Virus record (IMG/VR): IMGVR_UViG_3300033273_000550
Coordinates: 166,013 to 191,416 of that record
DNA: 25,404 nt
Strand: one strand, 5' to 3'
Source of the DNA: a virus
Shown in pieces: positions 3,623 to 18,748 of the stretch (its first letter is position 1; each line of letters opens with the position of its first letter). The position numbers were made by a program, and so were the translations under genes. The notes under the pieces were generated by a model. It did not search any database and was not told where the DNA came from. It saw only the letters and a program-made list of their open reading frames with translations.

Positions 3623-4474
3623 ATGGCTAAAAATGCTGTTTTATCATTAAGTGGAGGAATGGATTCTTCTACATTATTACTACACCTACTTAGAGAGGGG
3701 TATAATGTTACTGCCTTATCGTTTGATTATGGGCAGAAGCATAGAGTAGAGCTAGAAAGAGCTCAACAACTAGTTGATTACGTTAACTCAAAAAGCGTAC
3801 AGCTAGTAGATTACGATTCTTCGCAAGAACAAGCGATTGCAGAACCGAAATTTAATAAGGTTACTTACCAAGTTATTAAGATTGACGGTATTACCTCATT
3901 ACTAAACTCAGCTCTAGTTGAAGGAGGTAGTGATGTACCAGAAGGTCATTACGAGGAAGAAAATATGAAGGATACTGTTGTTCCTAACAGAAATAAAATC
4001 TTCTCTTCTCTTACTCAAGCTGTAGCACTATCTATTGCAAATAAAACTCAAGAAGACACGTTTATTTCCTTGGGAATTCATGCAGGAGATCACGCTATTT
4101 ATCCTGATTGTAGACAAGAATTTAGAGATGCTGATATGGAAGCGTTTCAAGTAGGTAACTGGGATGCAGATAGAGTTAAATTTTATACTCCTTATTTAGA
4201 TACCGATAAATTTGGTATTTTAAAAGATGGAGAGGTTAGCTGTGAAGAGTTAGGCTTAGACTTTAATGAAGTATATGCTAAGACTAATACTTCTTATAAA
4301 CCTTACCCTTCTGGTAACTCAGATTATAAATCAGCATCTTCAGTAGAAAGAATTGAGGCATTTATTTCTCTTGGAAGACCTGATCCGGTTCAATATGAAG
4401 ATGAAACTGGTCCTGTAGATTACGAAGTAGCTAAGTCACACGTAGAAAAGCTATTAGCTGAATACGCAAAATGA
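3623..4474 (+). CDS. queC: 7-cyano-7-deazaguanine synthase (QueC), variant without the C-terminal Zn-binding cysteines
   Basis: PP-loop SLSGGMDSSTLL, FDYGQKH..EL, TVVPNRN and HAGDHAIYPDCRQEF. Confidence 0.95.
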   Translation: MAKNAVLSLSGGMDSSTLLLHLLREGYNVTALSFDYGQKHRVELERAQQLVDYVNSKSVQLVDYDSSQEQAIAEPKFNKVTYQVIKIDGITSLLNSALVEGGSDVPEGHYEEENMKDTVVPNRNKIFSSLTQAVALSIANKTQEDTFISLGIHAGDHAIYPDCRQEFRDADMEAFQVGNWDADRVKFYTPYLDTDKFGILKDGEVSCEELGLDFNEVYAKTNTSYKPYPSGNSDYKSASSVERIEAFISLGRPDPVQYEDETGPVDYEVAKSHVEKLLAEYAK

Positions 4475-4905
4475 TTTACTGGTTCACAGGCCAACCAGGT
4501 GCTGGTAAAACAGTACTTGCAGATAAGTTAAAATCGCATCTTCCAGATGCATATCGAATTGATGGAGATGATATGAGAGAATTATTCTCTAATAAAGATT
4601 ACTCCATTAAAGGTAGAGTAGAAAACGTGGGTACTGCACAACGCATTGCCCACTATCTACATAACAATGGTAAAGATGTAATAGTTTCTTTAGTTTCTCC
4701 TTATATAGATCAAAGAGAAGATTTTAAAAAATTATTAGGAGACGATATAAAGGAAATTTACGTCCATACAGAAGATATTAGAGGAAGAGAGAATTATTTT
4801 GCTCAGGCTTATTTACCACCAAAAGAAAATTTTATTGACATAGATACTTCTTATGACTCTCCTCTTGAATCTTTTATTAAACTTCTTAAACAATTAAACC
4901 TATAA
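4471..4905 (+). CDS. cysC: Adenylylsulfate (APS) kinase
   Basis: WFTGQPGAGKT P-loop, IDGDDMR, DYS..GR.EN and VIVSLVSPY. Confidence 0.85.
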   Translation: MIYWFTGQPGAGKTVLADKLKSHLPDAYRIDGDDMRELFSNKDYSIKGRVENVGTAQRIAHYLHNNGKDVIVSLVSPYIDQREDFKKLLGDDIKEIYVHTEDIRGRENYFAQAYLPPKENFIDIDTSYDSPLESFIKLLKQLNL

Positions 4906-5243
4906 TGGAAAAGAAAAATACATACTTTGTAGATATCGACGGAACCATTTTTGTTTATAGAAAGTTTGAAACATATAAAAACTCAGAAGCTCAAGTAATT
5001 AAAAGTACTAAGCAGTTTTTGCAACAGAAGAAAGATGAGGGTCACTGTATTATATTAACAACTGCTAGACCAGATTATTTAAGATTACATACTGAATATG
5101 AATTAGAAGTTAATAATATTCCGTATGACCAATTAGTAATGGAAATAGAAAGAGGACCGAGATATTTAATTAATGACTTGTCTCCTCATGAACCTGGCGA
5201 TAGAGCAATAGCAATTAATTTAGAAAGAGATAAAGGTATATGA
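4905..5243 (+). CDS. Small capless HAD-superfamily phosphatase
   Basis: Motif I FVDIDGTI, motif II TTARP, C-terminal LIND. Confidence 0.8.
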   Translation: MEKKNTYFVDIDGTIFVYRKFETYKNSEAQVIKSTKQFLQQKKDEGHCIILTTARPDYLRLHTEYELEVNNIPYDQLVMEIERGPRYLINDLSPHEPGDRAIAINLERDKGI

Positions 5244-5593
5244 AAAAGTATTCAATGTTTATTGGTAGATGGCAACCTTGGCACGACGGACATAGATGGT
5301 TGATTGATCAGAGATTAAAAGAAGGTAAAAAGGTTTGGATAGCTATTCGTAATGTCGAACCTAATGAGAATCAACCTTGGACTCCTCATGAGGTTTTAAT
5401 GAATTTACAAGAAGAGTTGAATGATTTAATTCAAGAAGGTAAAATATTTATATCTATAGTCCCTGATATTGAGTCGATCAATTACGGTAGAGGAGTAGGT
5501 TATGATATCATAGAACACATCCCACCAAAAGAAATCGGAGAAATCTCAGCTACTTCTATTAGAAAACAGATGAAAAAAGATGGTAAGTTATAA
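5240..5593 (+). CDS. HxGH-family nucleotidyltransferase (cytidylyltransferase-like); candidate minimal ATP sulfurylase
   Basis: FIGRWQPWHDGH and C-terminal ISATSIR. Lies two genes downstream of cysC. Confidence 0.8.
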   Translation: MKKYSMFIGRWQPWHDGHRWLIDQRLKEGKKVWIAIRNVEPNENQPWTPHEVLMNLQEELNDLIQEGKIFISIVPDIESINYGRGVGYDIIEHIPPKEIGEISATSIRKQMKKDGKL

Positions 5594-5595
5594 AA

Positions 5596-6102
5596 ATGAT
5601 AGCCACGTTTGACAAATTTTTACTATCTGATAAAATATGTAAAAAAATAATATCAGAATATAAAGATAAAGTTTCTTTAATAGAAATGGTCAATGTTAGA
5701 AGGCAGAAAAATTATCATGAGTATGACGGAACTAGTTGGGTACATGAAGTTGTATCTGATTTGATTTGTAAAAATTTAGGCAGTCAGTACAAGTTATTAG
5801 AACGAGTTACTATTTTAAGATATGATATTAGTGATTATTTTATTGAGCATGTAGATGGTCCTAGTAATACAAAAATGAGAAATGATTTGTCATATCATTT
5901 TTACGGTGGTGTTGAGTTATCTGAAAAATCTGACTTTGACGGCGGAGAATTTTTTATAAAAAAGAAAAAAGTGGATTATAAAAAAGGAAGAATATTTACC
6001 CATGGATTTTCAGACCCACATAGTGTGAGTAAAATAACTAGAGGTACACGATGGAGTATTCATTTTTTAATTTTAAAAGAATATCAAAATGGTATCATAT
6101 AA
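5596..6102 (+). CDS. 2OG-Fe(II) oxygenase (prolyl-hydroxylase-like fold)
   Basis: HVD iron ligand motif, DFDGGEF, and distal H.V.KITRGTRWS. Confidence 0.85.
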   Translation: MIATFDKFLLSDKICKKIISEYKDKVSLIEMVNVRRQKNYHEYDGTSWVHEVVSDLICKNLGSQYKLLERVTILRYDISDYFIEHVDGPSNTKMRNDLSYHFYGGVELSEKSDFDGGEFFIKKKKVDYKKGRIFTHGFSDPHSVSKITRGTRWSIHFLILKEYQNGII

Positions 6103-6295
6103 AAGACACATAGCAAAAACAATTTCCTGGAGAATTCTAGGTACGTTAGATACTTTTATATTATCTTGGGTACTGACAGGGAATGTAAAGATAGGTGCTG
6201 CAATCGGCGGTGCTGAAGTTTTAACAAAAACTATATTATATTTTGTTCATGAAAGAGCATGGTATAAGTTTTCAAAATTTGGTTTAGATAAATGA
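6089..6295 (+). CDS. DUF2061 small membrane protein
   Basis: RHIAKTISWRILGTLDT...LTG...EVLTK..LYFVHERAW signature. Confidence 0.88.
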   Translation: MVSYKRHIAKTISWRILGTLDTFILSWVLTGNVKIGAAIGGAEVLTKTILYFVHERAWYKFSKFGLDK

Positions 6296-7971
6296 TCCAA
6301 TTAGGAATATCAGCTTTTTACCATGATTCTGCTGCCTGTTTAGTAGTAGACGGAAAAGTATTATTAGGTGCTGAAGAAGAGAGATTCACAGAAATTAAAC
6401 ATGATCATAGCTTTCCTGTTAATGCTATCTTATATGTACTAAGAGAATCAGGAATCCAAGATATCAATCAAATTGATGAGATTTGTTGGTACGAAATTCC
6501 GGAAGTTAAAAAAAATAGAGTTCTTAAAACTTTTAATAAGAACTTTTTTAAAACATTTAAAAATAGATTAAGATTTTTAAGAGACTATCATTTTAAAAGC
6601 CCAGCTAAATTATTAAAGAAGCATTTTAACTACACTGGTGACATAACATATGTAGATCATCACTTATCACATGCCGGTTTTTCATACTATACCAGCAAAT
6701 ATGAAAACGCTGCTATCTTATCTGTGGATGGAGTAGGAGAGTGGGAGACTGTTTCTATTTACCATGCAAAAGGTGAAGAATTATGGCAGAAGCATAGTTT
6801 TGTTTTTCCTAACTCTCTTGGGATGTTATACTCTACTGTTACTTCATTTTTAGGGTTTAAACCTAACGAAGGAGAATACAAAGTTATGGGATTAGCACCA
6901 TTCGGTGACCCAGAAAAATACTACGGTAAATTATCTAAAATTTTTACTCAAGAGTATCTAGAAATAGACCAAAAATACTTTACATGGGAATATTCTGATA
7001 GAATAATGTTTAATATGGAATTTTGTAAGCTTCTAGGATTGGCACCAAGGTTTAGTGAAGAGCCGATTGAACAAGAACATAAAGATTTAGCAGCTGCATT
7101 ACAAAAAATATATGAAAGAGAGTTTGAAAAATTAGTTATTCTTGCTAAGAATTATACCTCGACAGATAATATATGTTTAAGCGGAGGTTGTGCGTATAAT
7201 GGTGTAGCAAATAAATTAGCCTACAAACATTTTAAATCAGTACACATACCTTACGCACCATCTGATGCTGGATCTGCTATAGGTGCTTGTTTAGTTAGTA
7301 GAGCAGGTAAGAAAGAATCCTTTAATGTTACTCCATATTTAGGACCAAGAGTAAAAGATAGTGACTTTTTACCTATATTAAGTGATTATAAGGATAAATT
7401 AAGCTGGCAAGAGCTTAAGTTTACTGAGCTTACAGCTCAAGTAGCTAAACTATTAGATGAACAGAATATAGTAGCTTGGGTGCAAGGTAGGATGGAGTTC
7501 GGCGCAAGAGCGTTGGGTAACCGCTCTATATTAGCTTCTCCAAAAAATGCTTCGATGAGAGATAAGTTAAATAGGGTAATTAAAAAACGAGAAGGCTTTA
7601 GACCATTTGCTCCTTCTGTTACTCTAGAAACAGCATTTAAACATTTTAATATAGAAGAGCCTGTACCTTATATGAATATAGTAGTTACAGCTAAGGATGA
7701 TGACGGGTTTGCAAGATTTACTCGATTTCCTGCTGCTACTCATATCGACGGTACCTGCAGAGTTCAAACAGTAACACCAGAAATGAATAGTAGATACCAT
7801 CAACTGTTAAAGGCAGTTGGAAGACAGACCGGTGATGAAGTATTATTAAATACCTCATTTAATCTTAAAGATCAGACTATAACGGTCTCTGGTGAACAAG
7901 CAATCAAAAGATATTTAGATTCAGACATTGATTATTTGGTTATCAATAATTATTTAATTTCAAAGAGATGA
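6292..7971 (+). CDS. Carbamoyltransferase (NodU/CmcH/TobZ family)
   Basis: GISAFYHDSAA, EEERF, HHLSHA, DGVGE, EYKVMGLA, GRMEFGARALGNRSILA, KKREGFRPFAPS and LNTSFN. Confidence 0.95.
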   Translation: MIQLGISAFYHDSAACLVVDGKVLLGAEEERFTEIKHDHSFPVNAILYVLRESGIQDINQIDEICWYEIPEVKKNRVLKTFNKNFFKTFKNRLRFLRDYHFKSPAKLLKKHFNYTGDITYVDHHLSHAGFSYYTSKYENAAILSVDGVGEWETVSIYHAKGEELWQKHSFVFPNSLGMLYSTVTSFLGFKPNEGEYKVMGLAPFGDPEKYYGKLSKIFTQEYLEIDQKYFTWEYSDRIMFNMEFCKLLGLAPRFSEEPIEQEHKDLAAALQKIYEREFEKLVILAKNYTSTDNICLSGGCAYNGVANKLAYKHFKSVHIPYAPSDAGSAIGACLVSRAGKKESFNVTPYLGPRVKDSDFLPILSDYKDKLSWQELKFTELTAQVAKLLDEQNIVAWVQGRMEFGARALGNRSILASPKNASMRDKLNRVIKKREGFRPFAPSVTLETAFKHFNIEEPVPYMNIVVTAKDDDGFARFTRFPAATHIDGTCRVQTVTPEMNSRYHQLLKAVGRQTGDEVLLNTSFNLKDQTITVSGEQAIKRYLDSDIDYLVINNYLISKR

Positions 7972-8087: not shown

Positions 8088-8748
8088 ATTAAAAGTTGGA
8101 TTTTTCGGTGACAGTTGGTGTGGCTGTAGCACAAAAAATAAGCAAATATACGATATATCTTGGCCTAATTTACTGACTAAGAAATTAAATGCTGAGCCAT
8201 TGTATACCTGCTTACCCGGTGGTCACTTATTTCATGCATATGAAAAATTAGAAAATCATTTAAATGAAGTAGATTATGCTATAATAGTAGTTAGTGATCC
8301 GTACAGACTACCATCTGAATATCAAATACCAGCTATGAGTGCCGGTTATGATGATGAAGTTGCAGAGAGGCTTTTAGGTAAAAGACAAGCTGATATGTTT
8401 GGTAAGTATGTAGAGTATCATTATAGATTTTTTTCAAGAAAATATTCTGGTATAGCTCAAAAAGGATTATTAAGTGAAATAGATAATATGGTGAAAGATA
8501 AGAAAGCACTTATAATTCCTGGATTTAAGTTATCTATGCAAGGGTACAAAATTACTAATGCAGCATATACAAACTGTACTTTACACTCTATTAAGAGAAA
8601 ACGTTTTGATAAAAATAAAACAATCGCAAATCATCTTAATGAAGAGGAAAATATTGTGTTAGCCAATGCTTTATATGATTTTATAACATCAGATTATAAA
8701 AAAGGTGAATTTGATTTAAAAAAGTATTTTAAATATTTGTATAATTGA
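8068..8748 (+). CDS. SGNH/GDSL hydrolase-like protein
   Basis: N-terminal GFFGDSW (block I) and C-terminal ANHLNEE.N..LA (block V-like). TTG start. Confidence 0.6.
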   Translation: MSTKTSKLKVGFFGDSWCGCSTKNKQIYDISWPNLLTKKLNAEPLYTCLPGGHLFHAYEKLENHLNEVDYAIIVVSDPYRLPSEYQIPAMSAGYDDEVAERLLGKRQADMFGKYVEYHYRFFSRKYSGIAQKGLLSEIDNMVKDKKALIIPGFKLSMQGYKITNAAYTNCTLHSIKRKRFDKNKTIANHLNEEENIVLANALYDFITSDYKKGEFDLKKYFKYLYN

Positions 8749-8765
8749 AAATAAAAGGTTATATT
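8737..8765 (+). promoter_or_regulatory. Putative promoter TTGTAT-17-TATATT for queD-queE-ferredoxin
   Basis: TTGTAT 8737-8742, 17-nt spacer, TATATT 8760-8765. Confidence 0.7.
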
Positions 8766-8776
8766 GTATAGACAAT

Positions 8777-8804
8777 AGTGTCGTAGAACCACTTTAAAAA
8801 CACA
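8777..8804 (+). ncRNA. preQ1-I (type 2-like) riboswitch aptamer in the queD 5' UTR
   Basis: P1 AGTG(8777-80)/CACT(8790-93), loop TCGTAGAAC, tail TTAAAAACACA. This parallels the T. tengcongensis aptamer as I recall it (loop UCGCAGUAAC, tail UUAACAAAACAAG). It ends 2 nt before the ATG of a preQ1 biosynthesis gene. Confidence 0.75.
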
Positions 8805-8806
8805 TT

Positions 8807-9274
8807 ATGGGAAAATTTCAATCAACAAAAGTATTCGATGGCTTTTCGACGGTATTCCGTCAATGGAAAGCAGAAACTACCCACTGTAAATATGTACATG
8901 GGTATGGAGTTTCATTTAAATTATGGTTTGAAGGTGATTTAGATGAAAGAAACTGGGTATGGGACTTCGGCGGAATGAAAAGAGCTAAAGGAAAAATAGA
9001 TGGTATGACTCCAAAAGAATGGATGGATTACATGTTCGATCATACCTTTGTAGTAGCAGAAGATGATCCGTATCTTCAATCATTTGTTAAAATGGATGAA
9101 GCAGGAGTAGCTCAAGTAAGAGTAGTACCTGCAACAGGAGCAGAAAGATTTGCTAAATTTATTTACGATAAAGTTAATCCTTTTATTGAAGAAGAAACAG
9201 AAGGTAGAGTAAAAATAGCAAGAGTAGAATTTAGAGAACATGGTAAAAACTCAGCAATATATGAGCCTAGGTAG
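8807..9274 (+). CDS. queD: 6-carboxy-5,6,7,8-tetrahydropterin synthase (QueD)
   Basis: FRQWKA..HCKYVHGY, WVWDFGG, FDHT, and C-terminal EH..NSA.Y. Confidence 0.93.
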   Translation: MGKFQSTKVFDGFSTVFRQWKAETTHCKYVHGYGVSFKLWFEGDLDERNWVWDFGGMKRAKGKIDGMTPKEWMDYMFDHTFVVAEDDPYLQSFVKMDEAGVAQVRVVPATGAERFAKFIYDKVNPFIEEETEGRVKIARVEFREHGKNSAIYEPR

Positions 9275-10037
9275 AATAGAAGATTATAATAAAACTTTAC
9301 CTATAGTAGAGCTCTATACTGCTGTACAATCAGAAGGATCTAGACAAGGATTTCCTACTATAGTAATACGTACTACAGGTTGTACGCATAGATGTTATTT
9401 CGGAGAAGGTGGATGGTGTGATTCTTGGTATACTTCTATACATCCCGAAAAAGGAAAATATAACTTCCAGGATATCATAGATATGTATAATAGTCATCCG
9501 CATATTAGTGAAATGATGTTGACAGGAGGTTCGCCTACTATGCATAAAAAATTAGTTAATGAATTAACACATTTTGCTAATGAGAGAGATATTTTCATTA
9601 CTATTGAAACTGAAGGAAGTCACTTTCTCCCCACAGACTATCCTATTAACCTTTTATCTATTAGTCCTAAGTTTTCTAATTCTATTCCAGTTATAGGTGT
9701 GGAAACTCCAGAAGGTAAGATAACTGATGATAAGATGATTAAACAGCATAATAAATTTAGAGTAAATGTTGAAGCAATTAAAGAAAGCATTAATTATCAT
9801 TCCGATTACCATATTAAACCGGTTCTTGATAAAGAGCTGTCGATGGTGCCAGAAGTAGAAGAGTTTATTAATAAATTAGAAATTCCTAAAGAAAAAATAT
9901 GGGCAATGCCTGCAGGTGATGATAGAGTTTCACTTTTTGAGAGTTATCCGGTAGTAATGAACTTCGTTAGAGATAAAGGATGGAGATTTACCGGTAGGGC
10001 TCATATTATGGCGTTTGATACCGAAAGAGAAGTATGA
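9261..10037 (+). CDS. queE: 7-carboxy-7-deazaguanine synthase, radical SAM (QueE)
   Basis: E.Y..VQSEG...G.PTI.IRTTGC, CTHRCYFGEGGWCDS, LTGGSP, TIETEG and SISPK. ATG 9261 preferred over 9240. Confidence 0.93.
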   Translation: MSLGRIEDYNKTLPIVELYTAVQSEGSRQGFPTIVIRTTGCTHRCYFGEGGWCDSWYTSIHPEKGKYNFQDIIDMYNSHPHISEMMLTGGSPTMHKKLVNELTHFANERDIFITIETEGSHFLPTDYPINLLSISPKFSNSIPVIGVETPEGKITDDKMIKQHNKFRVNVEAIKESINYHSDYHIKPVLDKELSMVPEVEEFINKLEIPKEKIWAMPAGDDRVSLFESYPVVMNFVRDKGWRFTGRAHIMAFDTEREV

Positions 10038-10288
10038 GTTATATCATAGGATCTAAATGTATAGGAACAAAAGATGGTGCTTGTATAGCTGTTTGCCCAG
10101 TAGATTGTATAGAGGAAGGAGAGGATAGCATGTATATCGACCCTGAAACTTGCATTGACTGTGGTGCTTGTGTGCCAGAATGCCCAGTTGAAGCTATCTT
10201 CGATTCTGAAGAAGATGCAATAGCAGCCGGTGAACTAGAGGCTGTAAAAAATAACTATAAATTTTACAATTTAAAATATGAAAACTAA
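10034..10288 (+). CDS. Dicluster (7Fe/8Fe-type) ferredoxin
   Basis: C.GTKDGACIAVCPVDCI and YIDPETCIDCGACVPECPVEAI. ATGA-coupled to queE. Confidence 0.93.
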   Translation: MSYIIGSKCIGTKDGACIAVCPVDCIEEGEDSMYIDPETCIDCGACVPECPVEAIFDSEEDAIAAGELEAVKNNYKFYNLKYEN

Positions 10289-11098: not shown

Positions 11099-13609
11099 AT
11101 GAGAAATCTCGTTACAATGCTGTTAACATTCTTAACAGTAGGAGCTTACGCTCAACAAGTAGCTGTTAAGGATACAGTCCTGACACAGCAGCTAGAAGAG
11201 GTAGTAGTCTCATCAAGGGTAATTGACGTTGCAAAAGAACGAATTACACCTGTTGCAGTATCTACTATTTCCGCTAGTGACATTTCTTTAAAAACAGGAA
11301 ACTTAGAGTTCCCTGAAATTATGAACAACACCCCAGGTGTTTACGCTACTAAGCAAGGAGGAGGATATGGGGATTCTCGTATCTCACTTCGAGGTTTTGA
11401 TCAGCGTAATACATCTTTCTTAATTAACGGTCAACCCGTTAATGACATGGAAAACGGGTGGGTGTACTGGTCTAACTGGCAAGGATTAACGGACGTTGCT
11501 TCCGGAATCCAAATCCAAAGAGGACTTGGTGCATCAAGACTGGCTGTCCCTTCTGTGGGTGGTACAGTATCTATCTTCACTAAAAGTGCGGATAAAAGAC
11601 AAGGCGGTTCATTTACCCAAGTAGTAGGTAACGACGGGTATACTAAAACGACTGCTGCTTACAACACTGGATTAAATGAAAATGGATGGGCTACATCTGT
11701 TTTATTAAGTAAGTGGGCTGGAGATGGCTATATTTACAACACCAGTGGTGAAGGTTGGACTTACTTCTTTGCATTAGGATATGCACCAGAAGATTCTGAT
11801 CATGCTATTAACTTTTCTTTATTAGGTGCAGGACAATGGCACCACCAAAGAGATGTTTGGGTATCTATTAGAGATTACCAAAACTTTGGTGAAGAAGGAA
11901 TTGATAGAAGATGGAACTCAAACGGTGGTATTTTAAACGGAGAAGAATATAGCCTTAGAAGAAACTTCTATAACAAACCATTAGCTACAATTAACTGGGA
12001 TTGGGACATTTCTGATAATGTTCAATTAAATACATCCCTATATGGTTCAGCTGGTAGAGGTGGTGGAACAGGTCCAAGAGGTAGAAACTACTACAACTCG
12101 GAAACTGATATCTTACCATTTAGAAAAGACCTTACTGAACATTATTTAGAAAATGGTAGAGGTTCAAGATTGGCTAACGGTTTCATCGATTTTGATGCAA
12201 TCGTTCAGTACAATAGAAATAACACTCAAGGATATGATGGAGGAATCTCTGCATATCAAGGAGCTTTAATCGCTTCTAACGGGTACAATGATGATAACGT
12301 AAATAGAGCTGGTCTAGTAAGAAGAGCTTCTATGAACTCTCATGATTGGGTAGGTGCTATTTCAAACTTAGATATTACTGCTGGTAAGATGAGATACTCT
12401 ATCGGAGTAGATTTAAGAAACTACAAAGGTTACCATTATAGAGTACTAAATGATCTATTAGGATTTGATGCTTATTACTCTACTGGTAATAAAAACTCAG
12501 AAGGACAGATTATTGAATCACTAGTTGAAGCAAGTCCATTTCAAAACACTGGAATTAGAGGACCTAAAATCGATTACTACAATATCGGATATGTAGGTTG
12601 GCAAGGTGTTAATGGTTTAGCTGAATACTCAGGAGATGCATTAACTGCTGTAATTCAAGCAGGTCTTTCTAATCAATCATTCCAAAGAGAAGATTTATTT
12701 GATCAACCATCTAACTACCTTTCTGAAAAGAAGAACGTTGGTGGTGGGTATGTTAAAGGTGGCGCAAACTACAACCTAGATGCTAAGTCTAATGTATTCT
12801 TTAACGCAGGGTATATTTCGAGACAGCCTAATTTCGATGCAGTATTCCCTAACTACGCTAATAACGTTAACCCAAATCTACAGAATGAAGAAATTAAATC
12901 TTTAGAACTTGGATACGGATTTATCACAGACAAAGTTAAATTAAACGTAAATATCTACTCTACTAACTGGGGTAATAGATTTGTAACCAGATCTCTTACT
13001 AACCAGCAAGGTGTTGATGGATTTGCTCAATTTAGAGATATCGATGTAACTCACAACGGTGTTGAGATTGAAAGTTCATACAAACCATCTAGTAGAACTA
13101 CATTCAAAGGAATGCTATCAATTGGTGATTGGGAATACGATAATAACTTCGAAGCAGAATTATTTGACGAGAACCAACAATCAATCGGTACAGGTACTTT
13201 ATATACTAAAGGAGCTAAAGTAGGGGATGCTGCACAATTTGTAGCTAACTTTGCAGTCGATCAGAGATTCGGCTCTAAACTTAAAGCTGACCTATCATAT
13301 AGATTCGTTGACGGATTATATGCTGATTATTCAATTACTGATTCAGCATTTACTTCTCCAGATAACGATGGAGCACTTAAATTACCTTCTTATGGTCTTG
13401 TTGACCTAGGAGCTACTTTCTTTGCAGGAAGAGGGTGGAGTTTAAGAGCTAATGTTAATAACGTATTAGACACAACTTATATTGCTGAGTCTAATTCAAA
13501 TATCCATGCAAGTGCAACTTCAACTACATGGAATGGAATTGATGTAAGAAACTCGGTATGGTTCGGATTCGGAAGAACTTGGAACGTATCTCTTAAGAAA
13601 AGATTCTAA
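11099..13609 (+). CDS. TonB-dependent outer-membrane receptor (Bacteroidota type)
   Basis: Signal peptide, LEEVVV TonB-box-like segment, plug ISLRGF..N...LING.PVND, beta-barrel pattern, terminal GRTWNVSLKKRF. Confidence 0.95.
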   Translation: MRNLVTMLLTFLTVGAYAQQVAVKDTVLTQQLEEVVVSSRVIDVAKERITPVAVSTISASDISLKTGNLEFPEIMNNTPGVYATKQGGGYGDSRISLRGFDQRNTSFLINGQPVNDMENGWVYWSNWQGLTDVASGIQIQRGLGASRLAVPSVGGTVSIFTKSADKRQGGSFTQVVGNDGYTKTTAAYNTGLNENGWATSVLLSKWAGDGYIYNTSGEGWTYFFALGYAPEDSDHAINFSLLGAGQWHHQRDVWVSIRDYQNFGEEGIDRRWNSNGGILNGEEYSLRRNFYNKPLATINWDWDISDNVQLNTSLYGSAGRGGGTGPRGRNYYNSETDILPFRKDLTEHYLENGRGSRLANGFIDFDAIVQYNRNNTQGYDGGISAYQGALIASNGYNDDNVNRAGLVRRASMNSHDWVGAISNLDITAGKMRYSIGVDLRNYKGYHYRVLNDLLGFDAYYSTGNKNSEGQIIESLVEASPFQNTGIRGPKIDYYNIGYVGWQGVNGLAEYSGDALTAVIQAGLSNQSFQREDLFDQPSNYLSEKKNVGGGYVKGGANYNLDAKSNVFFNAGYISRQPNFDAVFPNYANNVNPNLQNEEIKSLELGYGFITDKVKLNVNIYSTNWGNRFVTRSLTNQQGVDGFAQFRDIDVTHNGVEIESSYKPSSRTTFKGMLSIGDWEYDNNFEAELFDENQQSIGTGTLYTKGAKVGDAAQFVANFAVDQRFGSKLKADLSYRFVDGLYADYSITDSAFTSPDNDGALKLPSYGLVDLGATFFAGRGWSLRANVNNVLDTTYIAESNSNIHASATSTTWNGIDVRNSVWFGFGRTWNVSLKKRF

Positions 13610-13667: not shown

Positions 13668-14069
13668 ATGGCAAAAAAGGTTGTATTAACGTGGGAGGAT
13701 ATAAACTCTCTATTGGATAAAATTCACAAACAGACACAAGGAAAAATAGATATGGTTACGGGTATACCGAGAGGTGGTACCTTACTGGCGATAATGTATT
13801 CGCATAGGTTTAATGTTGCTTATTTACCTTATATGAGTAACCATTATGAAAGACTTCTAATAATTGATGATATAGCAGATTCAGGAATTACATTTACAAA
13901 GACTAGTAAAGAGTTTCCTAATTGTAAGTATGCTGCTATTCATTATAAAAATACTTCAACTTTTAAACCTGACTTCTACGGATTAGAAATACCAGAAGAT
14001 TATGGATGGATCGTTTATCCGTGGGAAAAAAAAGATTCCAAACCTATACAGGATTATTTGGATAATTGA
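13668..14069 (+). CDS. Type I phosphoribosyltransferase, Gpt (xanthine-guanine PRT)-like
   Basis: GIPRGG, PRPP loop LIIDDIADSGIT, and WIVYPWE. The TTG start at 13635 in the track lies inside the terminator, so ATG 13668 is preferred. Confidence 0.88.
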   Translation: MAKKVVLTWEDINSLLDKIHKQTQGKIDMVTGIPRGGTLLAIMYSHRFNVAYLPYMSNHYERLLIIDDIADSGITFTKTSKEFPNCKYAAIHYKNTSTFKPDFYGLEIPEDYGWIVYPWEKKDSKPIQDYLDN

Positions 14070-14086
14070 GTAAAAAATCATATATT
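14058..14086 (+). promoter_or_regulatory. Putative promoter TTGGAT-17-TATATT for folE and the downstream block
   Basis: TTGGAT 14058-14063, 17-nt spacer, TATATT 14081-14086. Confidence 0.7.
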
Positions 14087-14104
14087 ATATTAAATAAAGT
14101 TTAT

Positions 14105-14785
14105 ATGGGTGATAGTGTAAAAAACGAAATTGAAATTGTAAAGACAGGTTTTGCTAATGGTGTAGCACCTGGTTTTCCATTAACTGAAGATGAGAAATGG
14201 AATGTAGTAGAAGAAGCAGCTGAAGCTTATGGTAAGTTTTTAGATGCATTAGGATGTGATTGGAAGAATGATCCTAACTCAGCTGATACTCCTAGAAGGG
14301 TAGCAAAAGCTTATGTTTTTGATCTTTGGAAAGGTAGATACGATGCTATGAGTGATATTACAGCATTTCCTTCTGATGGATATGACGGTATAGTACAAGA
14401 AAGTAACATACCAGTTACCTCTATGTGTAGTCACCACCACCAGACCATAGCTGGTAGAGTATCGATAGCTTACGTTCCTTCTAAAAATGGTAAGGTTGTA
14501 GGATTATCTAAGTTAAATAGAATTGTAGAGCATTTTGGTAGAAGAGGAGCTATACAGGAGCAACTTACTGTTGCTATTCATAATGCTATCCATGTTATAT
14601 GTGAAGGTAATTTAGGAGTAGCAGTAATGATAGATGCAACTCATAACTGTGTTAGTTGTAGAGGAGTAAAGCATTCAGGAGCATCAATGCAAACAGCTAA
14701 ACTATCAGGTTGTTTTCTAGAAGAAGATGCTGCTAGAGCAGAGTTTTATAAAAATATTGAACTTTCTAGCAAATGTCGAATCTAG
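14105..14785 (+). CDS. folE: GTP cyclohydrolase I
   Basis: TPRRVAK, SMCSHH, VVGLSKLNRIV, IQEQLT and ATHNCVSCRGV. ATG 14105 lies downstream of the promoter. Confidence 0.95.
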   Translation: MGDSVKNEIEIVKTGFANGVAPGFPLTEDEKWNVVEEAAEAYGKFLDALGCDWKNDPNSADTPRRVAKAYVFDLWKGRYDAMSDITAFPSDGYDGIVQESNIPVTSMCSHHHQTIAGRVSIAYVPSKNGKVVGLSKLNRIVEHFGRRGAIQEQLTVAIHNAIHVICEGNLGVAVMIDATHNCVSCRGVKHSGASMQTAKLSGCFLEEDAARAEFYKNIELSSKCRI

Positions 14786-15231
14786 AACACGATATTAGAC
14801 CTTGGGGGGAGTATCAAGTACTCTATGATGGAGAAGACTGTAAAGTAAAACGTATTACAGTTTTACCCGGTAAAAAACTATCACTTCAGTATCACTATAA
14901 AAGAGATGAACTTTGGCAGATCATCTCAGGTAAAGCAAAGTTAGTTATAGGATCTGAAGATCTTAAGTATGAAGAATTTGAGTTGCTTCCTCAAGATGAT
15001 TTCTTTATATTTAGAAAACAACATCACCGTATAGAGAATATAGGTGAAGAAAATTTAGTCTTTATTGAAATACAAACAGGTGACTATTTCGGTGAAGACG
15101 ATATAATAAGATTACAAGATGATTTTGGTAGAGTAGACTTTGATCATTTAAAAGATTGGGTTGATATAAAAGAAGAACAAAAAGCCAACAAAACTGATTG
15201 GTGGAAAAAAATGAGTAAAGATGGCAATTAA
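14773..15231 (+). CDS. Mannose-6-phosphate isomerase type II-like cupin
   Basis: RPWG.Y.VL, LSLQYH..R.E.W and EIQTG.Y.GEDDIIR..DDFGR. Confidence 0.85.
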   Translation: MSNLEHDIRPWGEYQVLYDGEDCKVKRITVLPGKKLSLQYHYKRDELWQIISGKAKLVIGSEDLKYEEFELLPQDDFFIFRKQHHRIENIGEENLVFIEIQTGDYFGEDDIIRLQDDFGRVDFDHLKDWVDIKEEQKANKTDWWKKMSKDGN

Positions 15232-15403
15232 ATTAGACGACCATATAGTAGAAATAGAAGGTATTAGGTATATACCTTATGAAGTAGCAGTAAAAGCAAT
15301 CTCTGAGATAGGAGAAGATCAGATTAATAGAGCTGATGAACTTCTAAATAAACTAGCTTCTGACTTAAATTTAACATTTAAAAATATAGATAAGAATGAT
15401 TAA
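15221..15403 (+). CDS. Hypothetical protein
   Basis: 60-aa ORF overlapping both neighbours. Confidence 0.7.
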   Translation: MAIKLDDHIVEIEGIRYIPYEVAVKAISEIGEDQINRADELLNKLASDLNLTFKNIDKND

Positions 15404-16214
15404 GATAGCTCACGAATCTCCTAAGAGTATATTTGAAGACGTACAAAGATTTACCGATTATGATTATGCGTTAGTTCATTTATTTGAAGAGGATGAGGAG
15501 TATCTTAAAATCTTTGAAAAAGCTGTTAGAAAAGGAAGAGAAGTAATTTTAGATAATTCTATTTTTGAATTAGAAGAAGCTTTTGATGCAGATAAATTTG
15601 CTAAGTGGGTGGATCATTTAAGACCTACCTGGTATATTGTACCGGATGCTTTAGAAGATTCTGTTAAGACATGTAAACAGATGGCTTCTTGGGATAAGAG
15701 GTATTCTGAGTTACCTGGTAAAAAGATAGGAGTAGTTCAAGGTAGAACATATGAGGAAATCGTAAACTGTTACAAGTTTATGGATAATTCTGACGTTGAT
15801 ATGATTGCTATTTCCTTCGACTATTCATACTATACTAAATCAGTACCTCATCCTAATAAGTATGTTAGTTGGATGTTAGGTAGAGTTAAGTTATTAGGAG
15901 ATCTACTTAAGGATGGAGTAATAAACGTAAATAAGAAGCATCATTTATTAGGATGTGGGTTACCGCAAGAGTTTCAATATTACAAGCATGCTGATTATAA
16001 TTGGTTATACTCTCTTGATACTTCTAATCCTGTAGTTCACGGTATTAAGGGAATTAGTTATGCCGATCAAGGACTATGGTCTAAAGAATCTCAAAAACTA
16101 TTTGAACTGATTAACTCAGATGTAAGTATAGACCAGTTAAGTGTTATTAAAAATAATATTCAAAAATTTAGATGGTTTGCAAATGGACAACAAGATGTGG
16201 ATAGCGTTTTTTAG
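15396..16214 (+). CDS. dpdA: TGT-fold / DpdA-like guanine transglycosylase (divergent, DpdA3-like)
   Basis: TGT-like motifs ILDNS.FE, VPD, GVVQG, HHLLGC and SLDTS. Short, lacks the tRNA-TGT Zn domain, and sits in a que gene context. Confidence 0.75.
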   Translation: MIKIAHESPKSIFEDVQRFTDYDYALVHLFEEDEEYLKIFEKAVRKGREVILDNSIFELEEAFDADKFAKWVDHLRPTWYIVPDALEDSVKTCKQMASWDKRYSELPGKKIGVVQGRTYEEIVNCYKFMDNSDVDMIAISFDYSYYTKSVPHPNKYVSWMLGRVKLLGDLLKDGVINVNKKHHLLGCGLPQEFQYYKHADYNWLYSLDTSNPVVHGIKGISYADQGLWSKESQKLFELINSDVSIDQLSVIKNNIQKFRWFANGQQDVDSVF

Positions 16215-16731
16215 TCAGACAGGATCTGAAATTGCCGATATTGCTGAGTCGTTAGGTAGATGGCCTGATAGAATAGTAACTAACGATAGACCAGAGCATC
16301 TTAGAACTATAGATGCTAGAATAGAAAAACAAGGTTACTTTACTTTCAGCAATAAACCTGATGTAGAAGAGTATGCTGACTTACTTACGTACTTTCCGGA
16401 CGCTATCATAACTCTACATGGTTGGTTAAGAATAATGCCTCCTGAGATTTGTGAAAGACATAGAATATTTAATGGTCATCCAGGATTAATAACTGAATAC
16501 CCAGAACTAAAAGGAAAAGATCCTCAGATAAGAGCTTACGAAGGCATTAAAGCTGGAAAATATCTGACTGCTGGAGCAGTTTTACACCACGTAACTGCTG
16601 GAGTTGATGAAGGTAAGGTTATTATGGAAGAATATTTTAATGCGCAAGATTTGTCTCTTGATGAATTATTTCGTATATTGAGAGATAGAAGTTTATATAT
16701 GTGGTGTAATTTTCTTAAAAAGGTTTTATGA
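16183..16731 (+). CDS. PurN-like formyltransferase; candidate preQ1 N-formyltransferase (DpdN-like)
   Basis: FFSQTGSE, LHGWLRIM, IFNGHPGL..YP and GAVLHHVTAGVDEGKVI match the GAR transformylase fold with catalytic N/H/D retained. Overlaps the dpdA-like gene. ATG 16183 preferred. Confidence 0.85.
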   Translation: MDNKMWIAFFSQTGSEIADIAESLGRWPDRIVTNDRPEHLRTIDARIEKQGYFTFSNKPDVEEYADLLTYFPDAIITLHGWLRIMPPEICERHRIFNGHPGLITEYPELKGKDPQIRAYEGIKAGKYLTAGAVLHHVTAGVDEGKVIMEEYFNAQDLSLDELFRILRDRSLYMWCNFLKKVL

Positions 16732-17836: not shown

Positions 17837-18748
17837 ATGTCAGAAGTTAAAAATTATCAAGAAGTAGTAGATATTGCATCTAAGCATTTAGGTAAAGTAG
17901 GAGGCGATGGATACTCAGATCAATATAATAGAGATTTATTGGTTAAGGTACCTAGGTTCTTAAATAGAGAAGGTTACGGATTAACATCAGATAGTTTTGT
18001 TGGTGTTGATGTTTGGAATGCTTATGAAGTATCTGCTATTACTGTAAAAGGTCAACCAGTAGCCGGTATGTTAAAGATAGTATGTCCAGCTGATTCCGAA
18101 TTTCATGTTGAATCTAAATCGATTAAGTTATATTTAAACTCTTTTAATATGACTCAAATTGGTGAAACTGCTGCCGATTGTATTAAAGCAATCGAAGCTA
18201 CTGTAAAAAGAGATTTAGATGAGTTACTAGAAACTGAGACAACTGTATCTTTTTATGCAAGTAGTGAAGAGGCGGAAGTTCTATCTTTCGAAGATTATCA
18301 GGATGTAGCAGATGTAGTAGATTTAGATCAAATAGACTTTACTTCTTTTAAATCAGATGCTTCTCAATTGAAGATTGAGGATACTGATGAGGAAGCTAAG
18401 GTAGTAAAATTAAGATCTAATCTTCTTAGATCAAATTGTAGAGTTACTAACCAACCGGATTGGGGAGATGTATTTATTAAACTTAAAGGTAAACATCTTC
18501 CAGCAGCAGACTCCTTAGCTAAGTATATTGTTAGTCATAGAACCGTTAGTCACTTTCATGAAGAGATATGCGAAATGGTTTTTAAACATATTTCTGATGC
18601 ATATGAACCTGAAGAGCTGATGGTAGCTTGTCTATATACTAGGAGAGGAGGTATAGATATTAATCCTGTAAGAGCAACTCATAGTAGTTTAATACCTGAA
18701 TTCTTTACTAACCCTGATTATTTAATTCAGAAGACTCTAAGACAGTAA
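17837..18748 (+). CDS. queF: NADPH-dependent preQ0 reductase, bimodular (type II) QueF
   Basis: GVDVWNAYE, QueF motif VESKSIKLYLNSFN, catalytic SNCRVTNQPDWG, FHEEICE and YTRRGGIDINP. Confidence 0.95.
   Translation: MSEVKNYQEVVDIASKHLGKVGGDGYSDQYNRDLLVKVPRFLNREGYGLTSDSFVGVDVWNAYEVSAITVKGQPVAGMLKIVCPADSEFHVESKSIKLYLNSFNMTQIGETAADCIKAIEATVKRDLDELLETETTVSFYASSEEAEVLSFEDYQDVADVVDLDQIDFTSFKSDASQLKIEDTDEEAKVVKLRSNLLRSNCRVTNQPDWGDVFIKLKGKHLPAADSLAKYIVSHRTVSHFHEEICEMVFKHISDAYEPEELMVACLYTRRGGIDINPVRATHSSLIPEFFTNPDYLIQKTLRQ

Follow-up and report, generated by a model that had tools for sequence, protein, structure and literature searches.

Genomic setting

The window, i.e. the whole stretch of 25,404 nucleotides analysed here, is the final 25 kb of a 191-kb virus record from IMG/VR; its G+C content is ~31%, and all ORFs of at least 80 aa lie on the plus strand. 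At the DNA level, the closest cultured relatives are Flavobacterium phage immuto and Cellulophaga phages. The window encodes a complete route from GTP to 7-deazaguanines, consisting of FolE, QueD, QueE, QueC, QueF, a formyltransferase and a DpdA-like protein (Table 1), and since both QueC and QueF are encoded, the phage should make both preQ0 and preQ1. The same gene set and order (folE, queD, queE, dpdA, formyltransferase, queF) recur in the clusters of Flavobacterium phage vB_FspM_immuto_2-6A and of the Cellulophaga phages; immuto reportedly makes fdPreQ1. In the window, queD is followed by queE and a ferredoxin gene, which are probably co-regulated with queD by coupling because of their overlapping starts.

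Between a promoter-like box and the start codon of queD lies a short RNA element, which an earlier note had read as a phage-borne preQ1-I riboswitch gating queD and queE. The TATATT box, the AGTG and CACT strands, the tail and the queD ATG were recovered base for base where the note had placed them. Judged from its sequence, the promoter-like box is predicted to set the transcript start a few bases 5' of the element, and nearly every phage copy described below has a (C/T)TATATT-type box ~11-25 nt 5' of P1. No GGAG-like Shine-Dalgarno sequence precedes queD, and no terminator lies 3' of the element. The L3 and P2 3' strands together take up positions -3 to -13 of queD, so that the element sits on an A-rich initiation region, and the description of a tail reaching -3 of a gene without a Shine-Dalgarno sequence is borne out by the sequence.

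Table 1. Parts of the RNA element and genes of the 7-deazaguanine pathway in the window (Tte, T. tengcongensis aptamer)
Feature	Position	Strand	Remarks
Promoter-like TTTG-N20-TATATT(GT) box	8736-8767	+	TTTG 8736-8739, TATATT 8760-8765
P1 5' strand, AGUG	8777-8780	+	pairs with 8790-8793; G8780 is the closing G, equivalent of Tte G5
TCGTAGAAC	8781-8789	+	L1, P2 5' strand and L2
L1 and P2 5' strand, UCGUAG	8781-8786	+	equivalent of Tte U6 C7 G8 C9 A10 G11
L2, AAC	8787-8789	+	C8789 is the putative ligand-pairing specificity base; A before C as in type II
P1 3' strand, CACU	8790-8793	+	pairs with 8777-8780
L3, UUAAAAA	8794-8800	+	A-rich strand expected in P1 minor groove; A8800 equivalent of Tte A29
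P2 3' strand, CACA (C30 A31 C32 A33)	8801-8804	+	ends at -3 of queD
TT spacer	8805-8806	+	followed by queD ATG at 8807
queD (6-carboxytetrahydropterin synthase-like, 155 aa)	8807-9274	+	Pfam PTPS 2.3e-14; PHROG QueD-like 3e-42; putative directly gated gene
queE	9240-10037	+	start overlaps preceding gene
Ferredoxin	10034-10288	+	start overlaps preceding gene
QueC	3623-4474	+	7-deazaguanine route
FolE	ATG at 14105	+	7-deazaguanine route
DpdA-like protein	15396-16214	+	7-deazaguanine route
Formyltransferase	16141-16731	+	7-deazaguanine route
QueF	17837-18748	+	7-deazaguanine route

Conservation and gene context of the element

For comparison, 80 phage loci with QueD identities of 71-94% were fetched, and a wider scan of viral contigs was carried out later. 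In the 90 nt directly upstream of queD in these 80 homologous loci, the element seemed to be absent; this apparent absence is misleading, because in most relatives a small ORF separates the element from queD. The same 30-mer was found as an exact match in another phage contig, with unrelated flanks, where it heads a 91-aa ORF followed by queD-queE. Scanning the loci placed the motif ~270-310 nt before queD, ahead of the small ORF, and revealed a second set of copies before another gene, which in Flavobacterium phage immuto is the annotated folE, with the copy directly before it. In phiST, the element was not found in the 13-kb queD region that was searched.

After the wider viral-contig scan, a perfect 4-bp stem was present at 105 of 141 TCGTAGNAC sites in the loci, the chance expectation being roughly 2% by our own estimate. 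Each of the 62 distinct stem-bearing copies examined stands at the head of smallORF-queD-queE, queD-queE, queE or folE(-dpdA), the folE class being recognised by an ORF of ~236 aa that takes the place of the annotated folE and has dpdA-like genes after it. In each of these 62 copies, an ATG follows 12-20 nt 3' of P1 and 2-9 nt 3' of the tail. Six further distinct variants carrying UCACAG are located ~270-400 nt before queD, ahead of a different ORF. A covariance model built from 48 sequences, one bacterial copy included, recovers 102 copies from contigs of uncultured phages, of which 55 are distinct. The 191-kb genome of the window phage holds a single copy, with a score of 50.4 bits (next best site, 16.6 bits) that is partly due to construction, because the window copy belongs to the training set.

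A chance resemblance in AT-rich intergenic DNA might be suspected given that the motif is short, that a loose regular expression also matched one unrelated site in the window (15700) and that Rfam finds nothing. The 102 copies, their exclusive queD/queE/folE context and the covariation in P1 refute it, as do the identical 30-mer with unrelated flanks in another contig and the 27-mer, which, with up to 3 mismatches, occurred in none of 100 shuffles. The probability left for this explanation is negligible, and the element is a real, widely conserved cis-regulatory RNA. The earlier note had named lack of conservation before homologous queD genes as grounds for giving up its reading; conservation and covariation are both present in the leaders of related phages.

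As to the proposal that the element gates queD-queE, its position in the window fits, the queD-queE message having it at the 5' end; most relatives have it before the small ORF preceding queD, or before folE, which argues for a pathway-level rather than a queD-specific regulator. The leaders of folE and queC in the window are without the RNA element, so that in the window phage feedback would cover only part of the pathway. The folE leader (14040-14107) has a TATATT-type box and no aptamer, and at least 20 related fetched loci contain two copies, one for queD and one for folE. When relatives were sought through the 226-aa ORF upstream of the element, none were found; the junction of this ORF with the element is specific to the window phage.

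The ORF between the element and queD in most of the 80 loci (L001-L080) measures 67-107 aa (e.g. L087:1197-1472, minus strand); its C-terminus reads ..IVGIGEELV or close to it in several copies, and one copy tested had no PHROG match. The window is without this ORF, and queD comes directly after the element. Two loci have a divergent stem-loop immediately 5' of queE (L034:3481-3505 and L035:3481-3516); it reads AGUG-ACUGUAAAAC-CACU with an A-run after it, matches the model weakly (E 0.25-0.8) and has A in place of U6.

Secondary structure

P1 is fully paired at all four positions in 55 of 55 distinct copies, in line with the 4-bp length given in the earlier note. Five forms occur in phages (AGUG/CACU, GGUG/CACC, UGAG/CUCA, GGAG/CUCC and UGUG/CACA) and a sixth, CCUG/CAGG, in bacteria. 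Both sides vary in pair 1 (AU/UA/GC) and in pair 3 (UA/AU), while the closing G-C pair is invariant; this amounts to two double-sided changes in the phages and three with Thalassospira. In slid controls, only 27-66% of the cells were paired, versus 100% for P1. Two alignments were used, of which A1 was pre-filtered for stems, whereas A2 was obtained from cmsearch without a stem filter.

Almost no variation is seen in the loop UCGUAGNAC or in the tail A5-C-A. Invariant or nearly so are the closing pair of G5, U6, C7, A10, G11, the AC before the P1 3' strand, the A-run and C30-A31. In A1, the hexamer UCGUAG is invariant, and the sole variant, UCACAG, is in every case accompanied by G33 in the tail. 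A14 and C15 of the alignment do not vary, the first L2 base does (A, C or U), and columns 7, 14 and 15 are constant across the 48 sequences that include one bacterial copy. L3 comprises 7 nt in 51 of the 55 distinct copies, with its As invariant, and C30 and A31 are conserved to at least 90%.

The evidence for P2 is more mixed. G11-C30 is paired in 51/55 copies, the four exceptions being L3-length shifts in the alignment. For positions 9 and 33, the 55 distinct copies comprise 26 with U-A, 8 with U-G, 6 with C-G and 15 unpaired, such that 40/55 (73%) are paired. Pairing with position 33 is found in 34 of the 49 copies with U9, and all six copies with C9 have G33; these six may be one lineage, and the T. 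tengcongensis register of P2 is therefore supported only moderately. The compensatory change from C9-G33 to U-A that had been proposed is accordingly seen in the window and agrees with the six C9 copies, but it does not extend to the 27% of copies in which 9 and 33 fail to pair. An alternative P2 register (U9-A31, G8-C32) was rejected, being broken in the folE class (CAA) and in the UCACAG variant without a compensating change. Likewise rejected as a switch partner was the helix 8775-8784/8800-8808 of the window's minimum-energy fold, which is unavailable in folE-type copies and has an unremarkable z-score. Nearest-neighbour folding yielded no significant structure (z ~0), and an uninformative minimum-free-energy fold is expected for a ligand-dependent knot of such size.

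Bacterial copies

For a scan of bacteria, a 17-base pattern was informative; a loose 14-base scan gave mostly chance matches (3 stems among 81). The bacterial aptamer reads CCUG-UCGUAGCAC-CAGG-(U)UAAAAA(A)CAC and is present in 10 of 151 genomes of the order of Thalassospira, and in many records of Thalassospira, Vibrio, Marinomonas, Thaumasiovibrio and Leucothrix. The gene that follows it is queD in Vibrio, Marinomonas and Thaumasiovibrio and queC in Thalassospira, where the aptamer comes after a P0-like hairpin and 19-26 nt ahead of queC-queD-queE; in Leucothrix, its distance to queC is 11 nt. In Vibrio and Marinomonas, it is located 60-90 nt before a gene for a 118-aa QueD, and the spacer contains a hairpin accompanied by a U-run, along with a box, GUGCUGC, complementary to GUAGCAC of the loop (L369:3337-3460; L354, L384, L387); Rfam had no match for this leader with its hairpin. 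From its sequence, the spacer looks like a transcriptional or dual expression platform. The expression platforms thus differ, with direct overlap of the start in some copies and a hairpin, U-run and loop-complementary box in others. The use of one aptamer with several expression platforms is typical of riboswitch modularity.

In the likely host family, the motif was found in none of 151 sampled Flavobacteriaceae genomes, under stricter filters, and on these grounds an origin of the element from the host was rejected. RF00522, the Rfam preQ1 model, scored above its cut-off in one of the 151 genomes, and that match is of type I (L341).

These data also bear on whether the conserved leader could be bound by a protein or by the ribosome, or serve as a promoter-proximal DNA operator, with no metabolite being sensed. 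A location 11-25 nt after a conserved TATATT box and a thermodynamically weak structure would suit such a role, and short inverted repeats can be operators. However, stem complementarity is kept through five stem sequences (six with bacteria) and the asymmetric loop is fixed; because the stems vary while their pairing is kept, this pattern is RNA-type covariation and not half-site conservation. Proteobacteria moreover have the same core downstream of unrelated promoters and joined to riboswitch-style platforms, and no candidate regulator gene travels with the element in the loci examined. A protein-binding or operator site is considered very unlikely.

Relationship to known preQ1 riboswitches

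With Rfam 15 at gathering thresholds, no match to any family was obtained in the whole window. Infernal searches with RF00522, which the earlier note had put forward as a check, did not return the element even at E <= 10, whether in a 161-nt search, in the whole phage genome, in the Thalassospira copy or in one Vibrio copy; over the phage genome, the model gave six chance sites of 9.8-12.6 bits, and the element site was not among them. The preQ1-II (RF01054) and preQ1-III (RF02680) models appeared in neither the window nor the 161-nt Rfam searches, which gave only noise (Plastid-clpP, Histone3 and snoRNA models, E > 0.02). The element is thus left unscored by RF00522, the gathering threshold of which is 39 bits. 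As a calibration, a T. tengcongensis-type aptamer from a Thermoanaerobacter genome scores 24.4 bits against this cut-off; the printed consensus of RF00522 is that of type I (UU...UC), and type I dominates the model. Since the crystallised T. tengcongensis (Tte) aptamer also falls below the cut-off, the miss points to distance from the Rfam consensus rather than to an absent fold. A model built from the phage copies, in turn, does not detect the Tte aptamer.

Class I of preQ1 is the smallest riboswitch known, and direct comparison with its Tte sequence shows a close resemblance. In the Tte structure, the ligand pairs with C15, has its edge read by U6 and A29, and stacks on G5-C16; in P2, G11-C30 and C9-G33 flank G8.A31 and A10.A32 (PMC7641330; PMC11625349). 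Type II aptamers have 'AC' directly before the P1 3' strand (PMC11625349). The conserved bases of the phage element match the ligand and ceiling contacts of Tte: U6, C7, G8, A10, G11, C15, the A-run and C30 are all kept, as the earlier note had stated, and 22 of 28 window positions are identical in an alignment with four gaps. As in the type II aptamers of T. tengcongensis and B. subtilis queC, the layout is of the H-type, with P1, a loop and an A-rich tail. A covarying P1, at 4 bp one pair below the solved structures, ends in an invariant closing G-C (G5-C16), which is followed directly by U and then C in a loop UCG(C/U)AG; AC with the specificity C directly precedes the P1 3' strand, and an A-rich L3 ends in a putative ligand-reading A, followed by C30 and A. 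The placement also corresponds to that of preQ1-I: messages for 7-deazaguanine biosynthesis begin with the element, the tail of which overlaps the region of ribosome binding, the phage copies preceding queD/queE/folE operons and the bacterial ones queC/queD.

The differences from Tte concern mainly size. P1 has 4 bp rather than 5, L2 is 2+C rather than 3+C and L3 has 7 nt rather than 9, giving an aptamer of ~28 nt; in addition, position 32 is C in the queD leaders, and the second Watson-Crick pair of P2 is only partly kept. In contrast to type II representatives, the phage element sequesters no Shine-Dalgarno sequence and would control DNA modification instead of tRNA queuosine. With preQ1-I of type I (e.g. 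L341) and type III (E. coli), it shares the gene theme and the overall idea of a pseudoknot. In type I, the P1 5' strand is followed by UU and the P1 3' strand is preceded by UC, the tail contains a C, and two ligands are bound; type III combines UU with a pyrimidine-rich loop and masks a Shine-Dalgarno sequence, AAGG (PMC11625349). Where the type I example L341 has UU and UC, the phage element has U-C and A-C. Of the original assignment to preQ1-I, a conserved covarying RNA with the type II ligand-contact bases stands, while membership in RF00522 does not.

Proposed mechanism

The element is most likely a miniature type-II-like preQ1/preQ0 riboswitch, and probably an OFF switch that senses preQ1 or preQ0 and buries positions -3 to -13 of a Bacteroidota-type start without a Shine-Dalgarno sequence. 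As such, it would form a miniature H-type pseudoknot like that of preQ1-I type II, right at the start of the queD-queE-ferredoxin mRNA. P1 (8777-8780/8790-8793) would stack under a short P2 made of G8786-C8801, G8783.A8802, A8785.C8803 and U8784-A8804, with the A-run 8796-8800 placed in the P1 groove. The free 7-deazaguanine base, either preQ1 or its precursor preQ0, may bind between the two helices, where it would pair with C8789, be read by U8781 and A8800 and stack on G8780-C8790. The folded knot would then tie up the stretch from -3 to -13 before the AUG and remove the A-rich landing region; ligand would lower translation of queD, and subsequently of queE and ferredoxin through the overlapping starts. 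The outcome would be feedback by the product on how much of the base is available for DpdA to insert into the phage DNA.

The expected direction follows from how initiation works in the presumable hosts. Bacteroidota ribosomes do not use Shine-Dalgarno pairing. In F. johnsoniae, mRNA structure and upstream adenines, among them the A at -3, modulate initiation (PMC6847099). Since such initiation relies on A-rich sequence that is free of structure and has A at -3, the ligand is expected to reduce translation of queD. As to the signal, type II aptamers bind preQ1 tighter than preQ0 and preQ0 tighter than guanine; the gap between preQ1 and preQ0 is only 17-fold in Tte, so either of the two could be sensed. 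Several points speak against the reading as a preQ1/preQ0 switch: RF00522 misses the element and the phage model misses Tte, nearest-neighbour folding gives no significant structure, folE and queC of the window are without the element, P2 has one invariant Watson-Crick pair only, the 9-33 pair failing in 15/55 copies, and no solved structure shows a knot with a 4-bp P1 and shorter L2 and L3 holding a ligand.

The same fold might serve another ligand, the phage copies preferring preQ0, or formyl-preQ1, CDG or an earlier pterin intermediate, and some copies may even be ON switches. The preQ1 model does not recognise the element, the shortened L2 and L3 could reshape the pocket, and these phages make DNA bases beyond preQ1, the window encoding a formyltransferase as well as a carbamoyltransferase. 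Yet every type II base that reads the guanine-like face (C15, U6, A29 and G5) is invariant here, type II aptamers already bind both preQ1 and preQ0, and in queuosine-making Proteobacteria ordinary queC/queD operons have the same aptamer in their leaders. Because the folE and queD copies share the core and the short distance to the ATG, and have no conserved alternative hairpin, nothing supports opposite wiring. A different ligand or wiring is considered unlikely, and a preQ1/preQ0 OFF switch is the preferred reading.

Full-text searches of the open literature found no phage preQ1-type riboswitch and no printed copy of the aptamer in a riboswitch context, although the type II set of McCown 2014 may include bacterial copies; nor did they turn up a virus-encoded metabolite sensor controlling DNA hypermodification. 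The word 'riboswitch' is absent from the study of Cui et al. 2023 on these phage pathways (PMC10516641). It is conceivable, if rather doubtful, that the element represents a separate, uncatalogued riboswitch subclass, with ~28 nt the smallest natural aptamer, which marine Proteobacteria share with phages of Flavobacteriia, the hosts themselves being without it; the phage version would be re-tuned to an intermediate of DNA modification (preQ0 or a preQ1 derivative) and act by occluding a Kozak-like A-rich start independently of a Shine-Dalgarno sequence. If the element binds its ligand, DNA hypermodification would be under the control of a metabolite sensor encoded by a virus, and riboswitch regulation would be exemplified for a translation system indifferent to Shine-Dalgarno sequences. 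The element would also move the lower size limit of natural aptamers to ~28 nt and provide a natural test of which parts of the preQ1-I fold are dispensable. The Rfam preQ1 model has a blind spot that covers this aptamer in Vibrio, Marinomonas, Thalassospira and the phages.

Neighbouring genes

Several ORFs of the window are interspersed with the pathway genes. Between queC and queD (4471-7971) are an APS-kinase-like ORF, two small ORFs, a 2OG-Fe(II) oxygenase and a Nol-like carbamoyltransferase, which could further decorate the deazaguanine base or a sugar. A mannose-6-phosphate-isomerase-like cupin (14773-15231) is situated between folE and the dpdA-like gene and occupies the same position in several related loci ('orf152'). 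Just downstream of the queD operon, an 836-aa ORF (11099-13609) has the Plug and beta-barrel domains of a TonB-dependent receptor, and in one related locus (L222) an ORF related to it likewise comes after queD-queE-ferredoxin.
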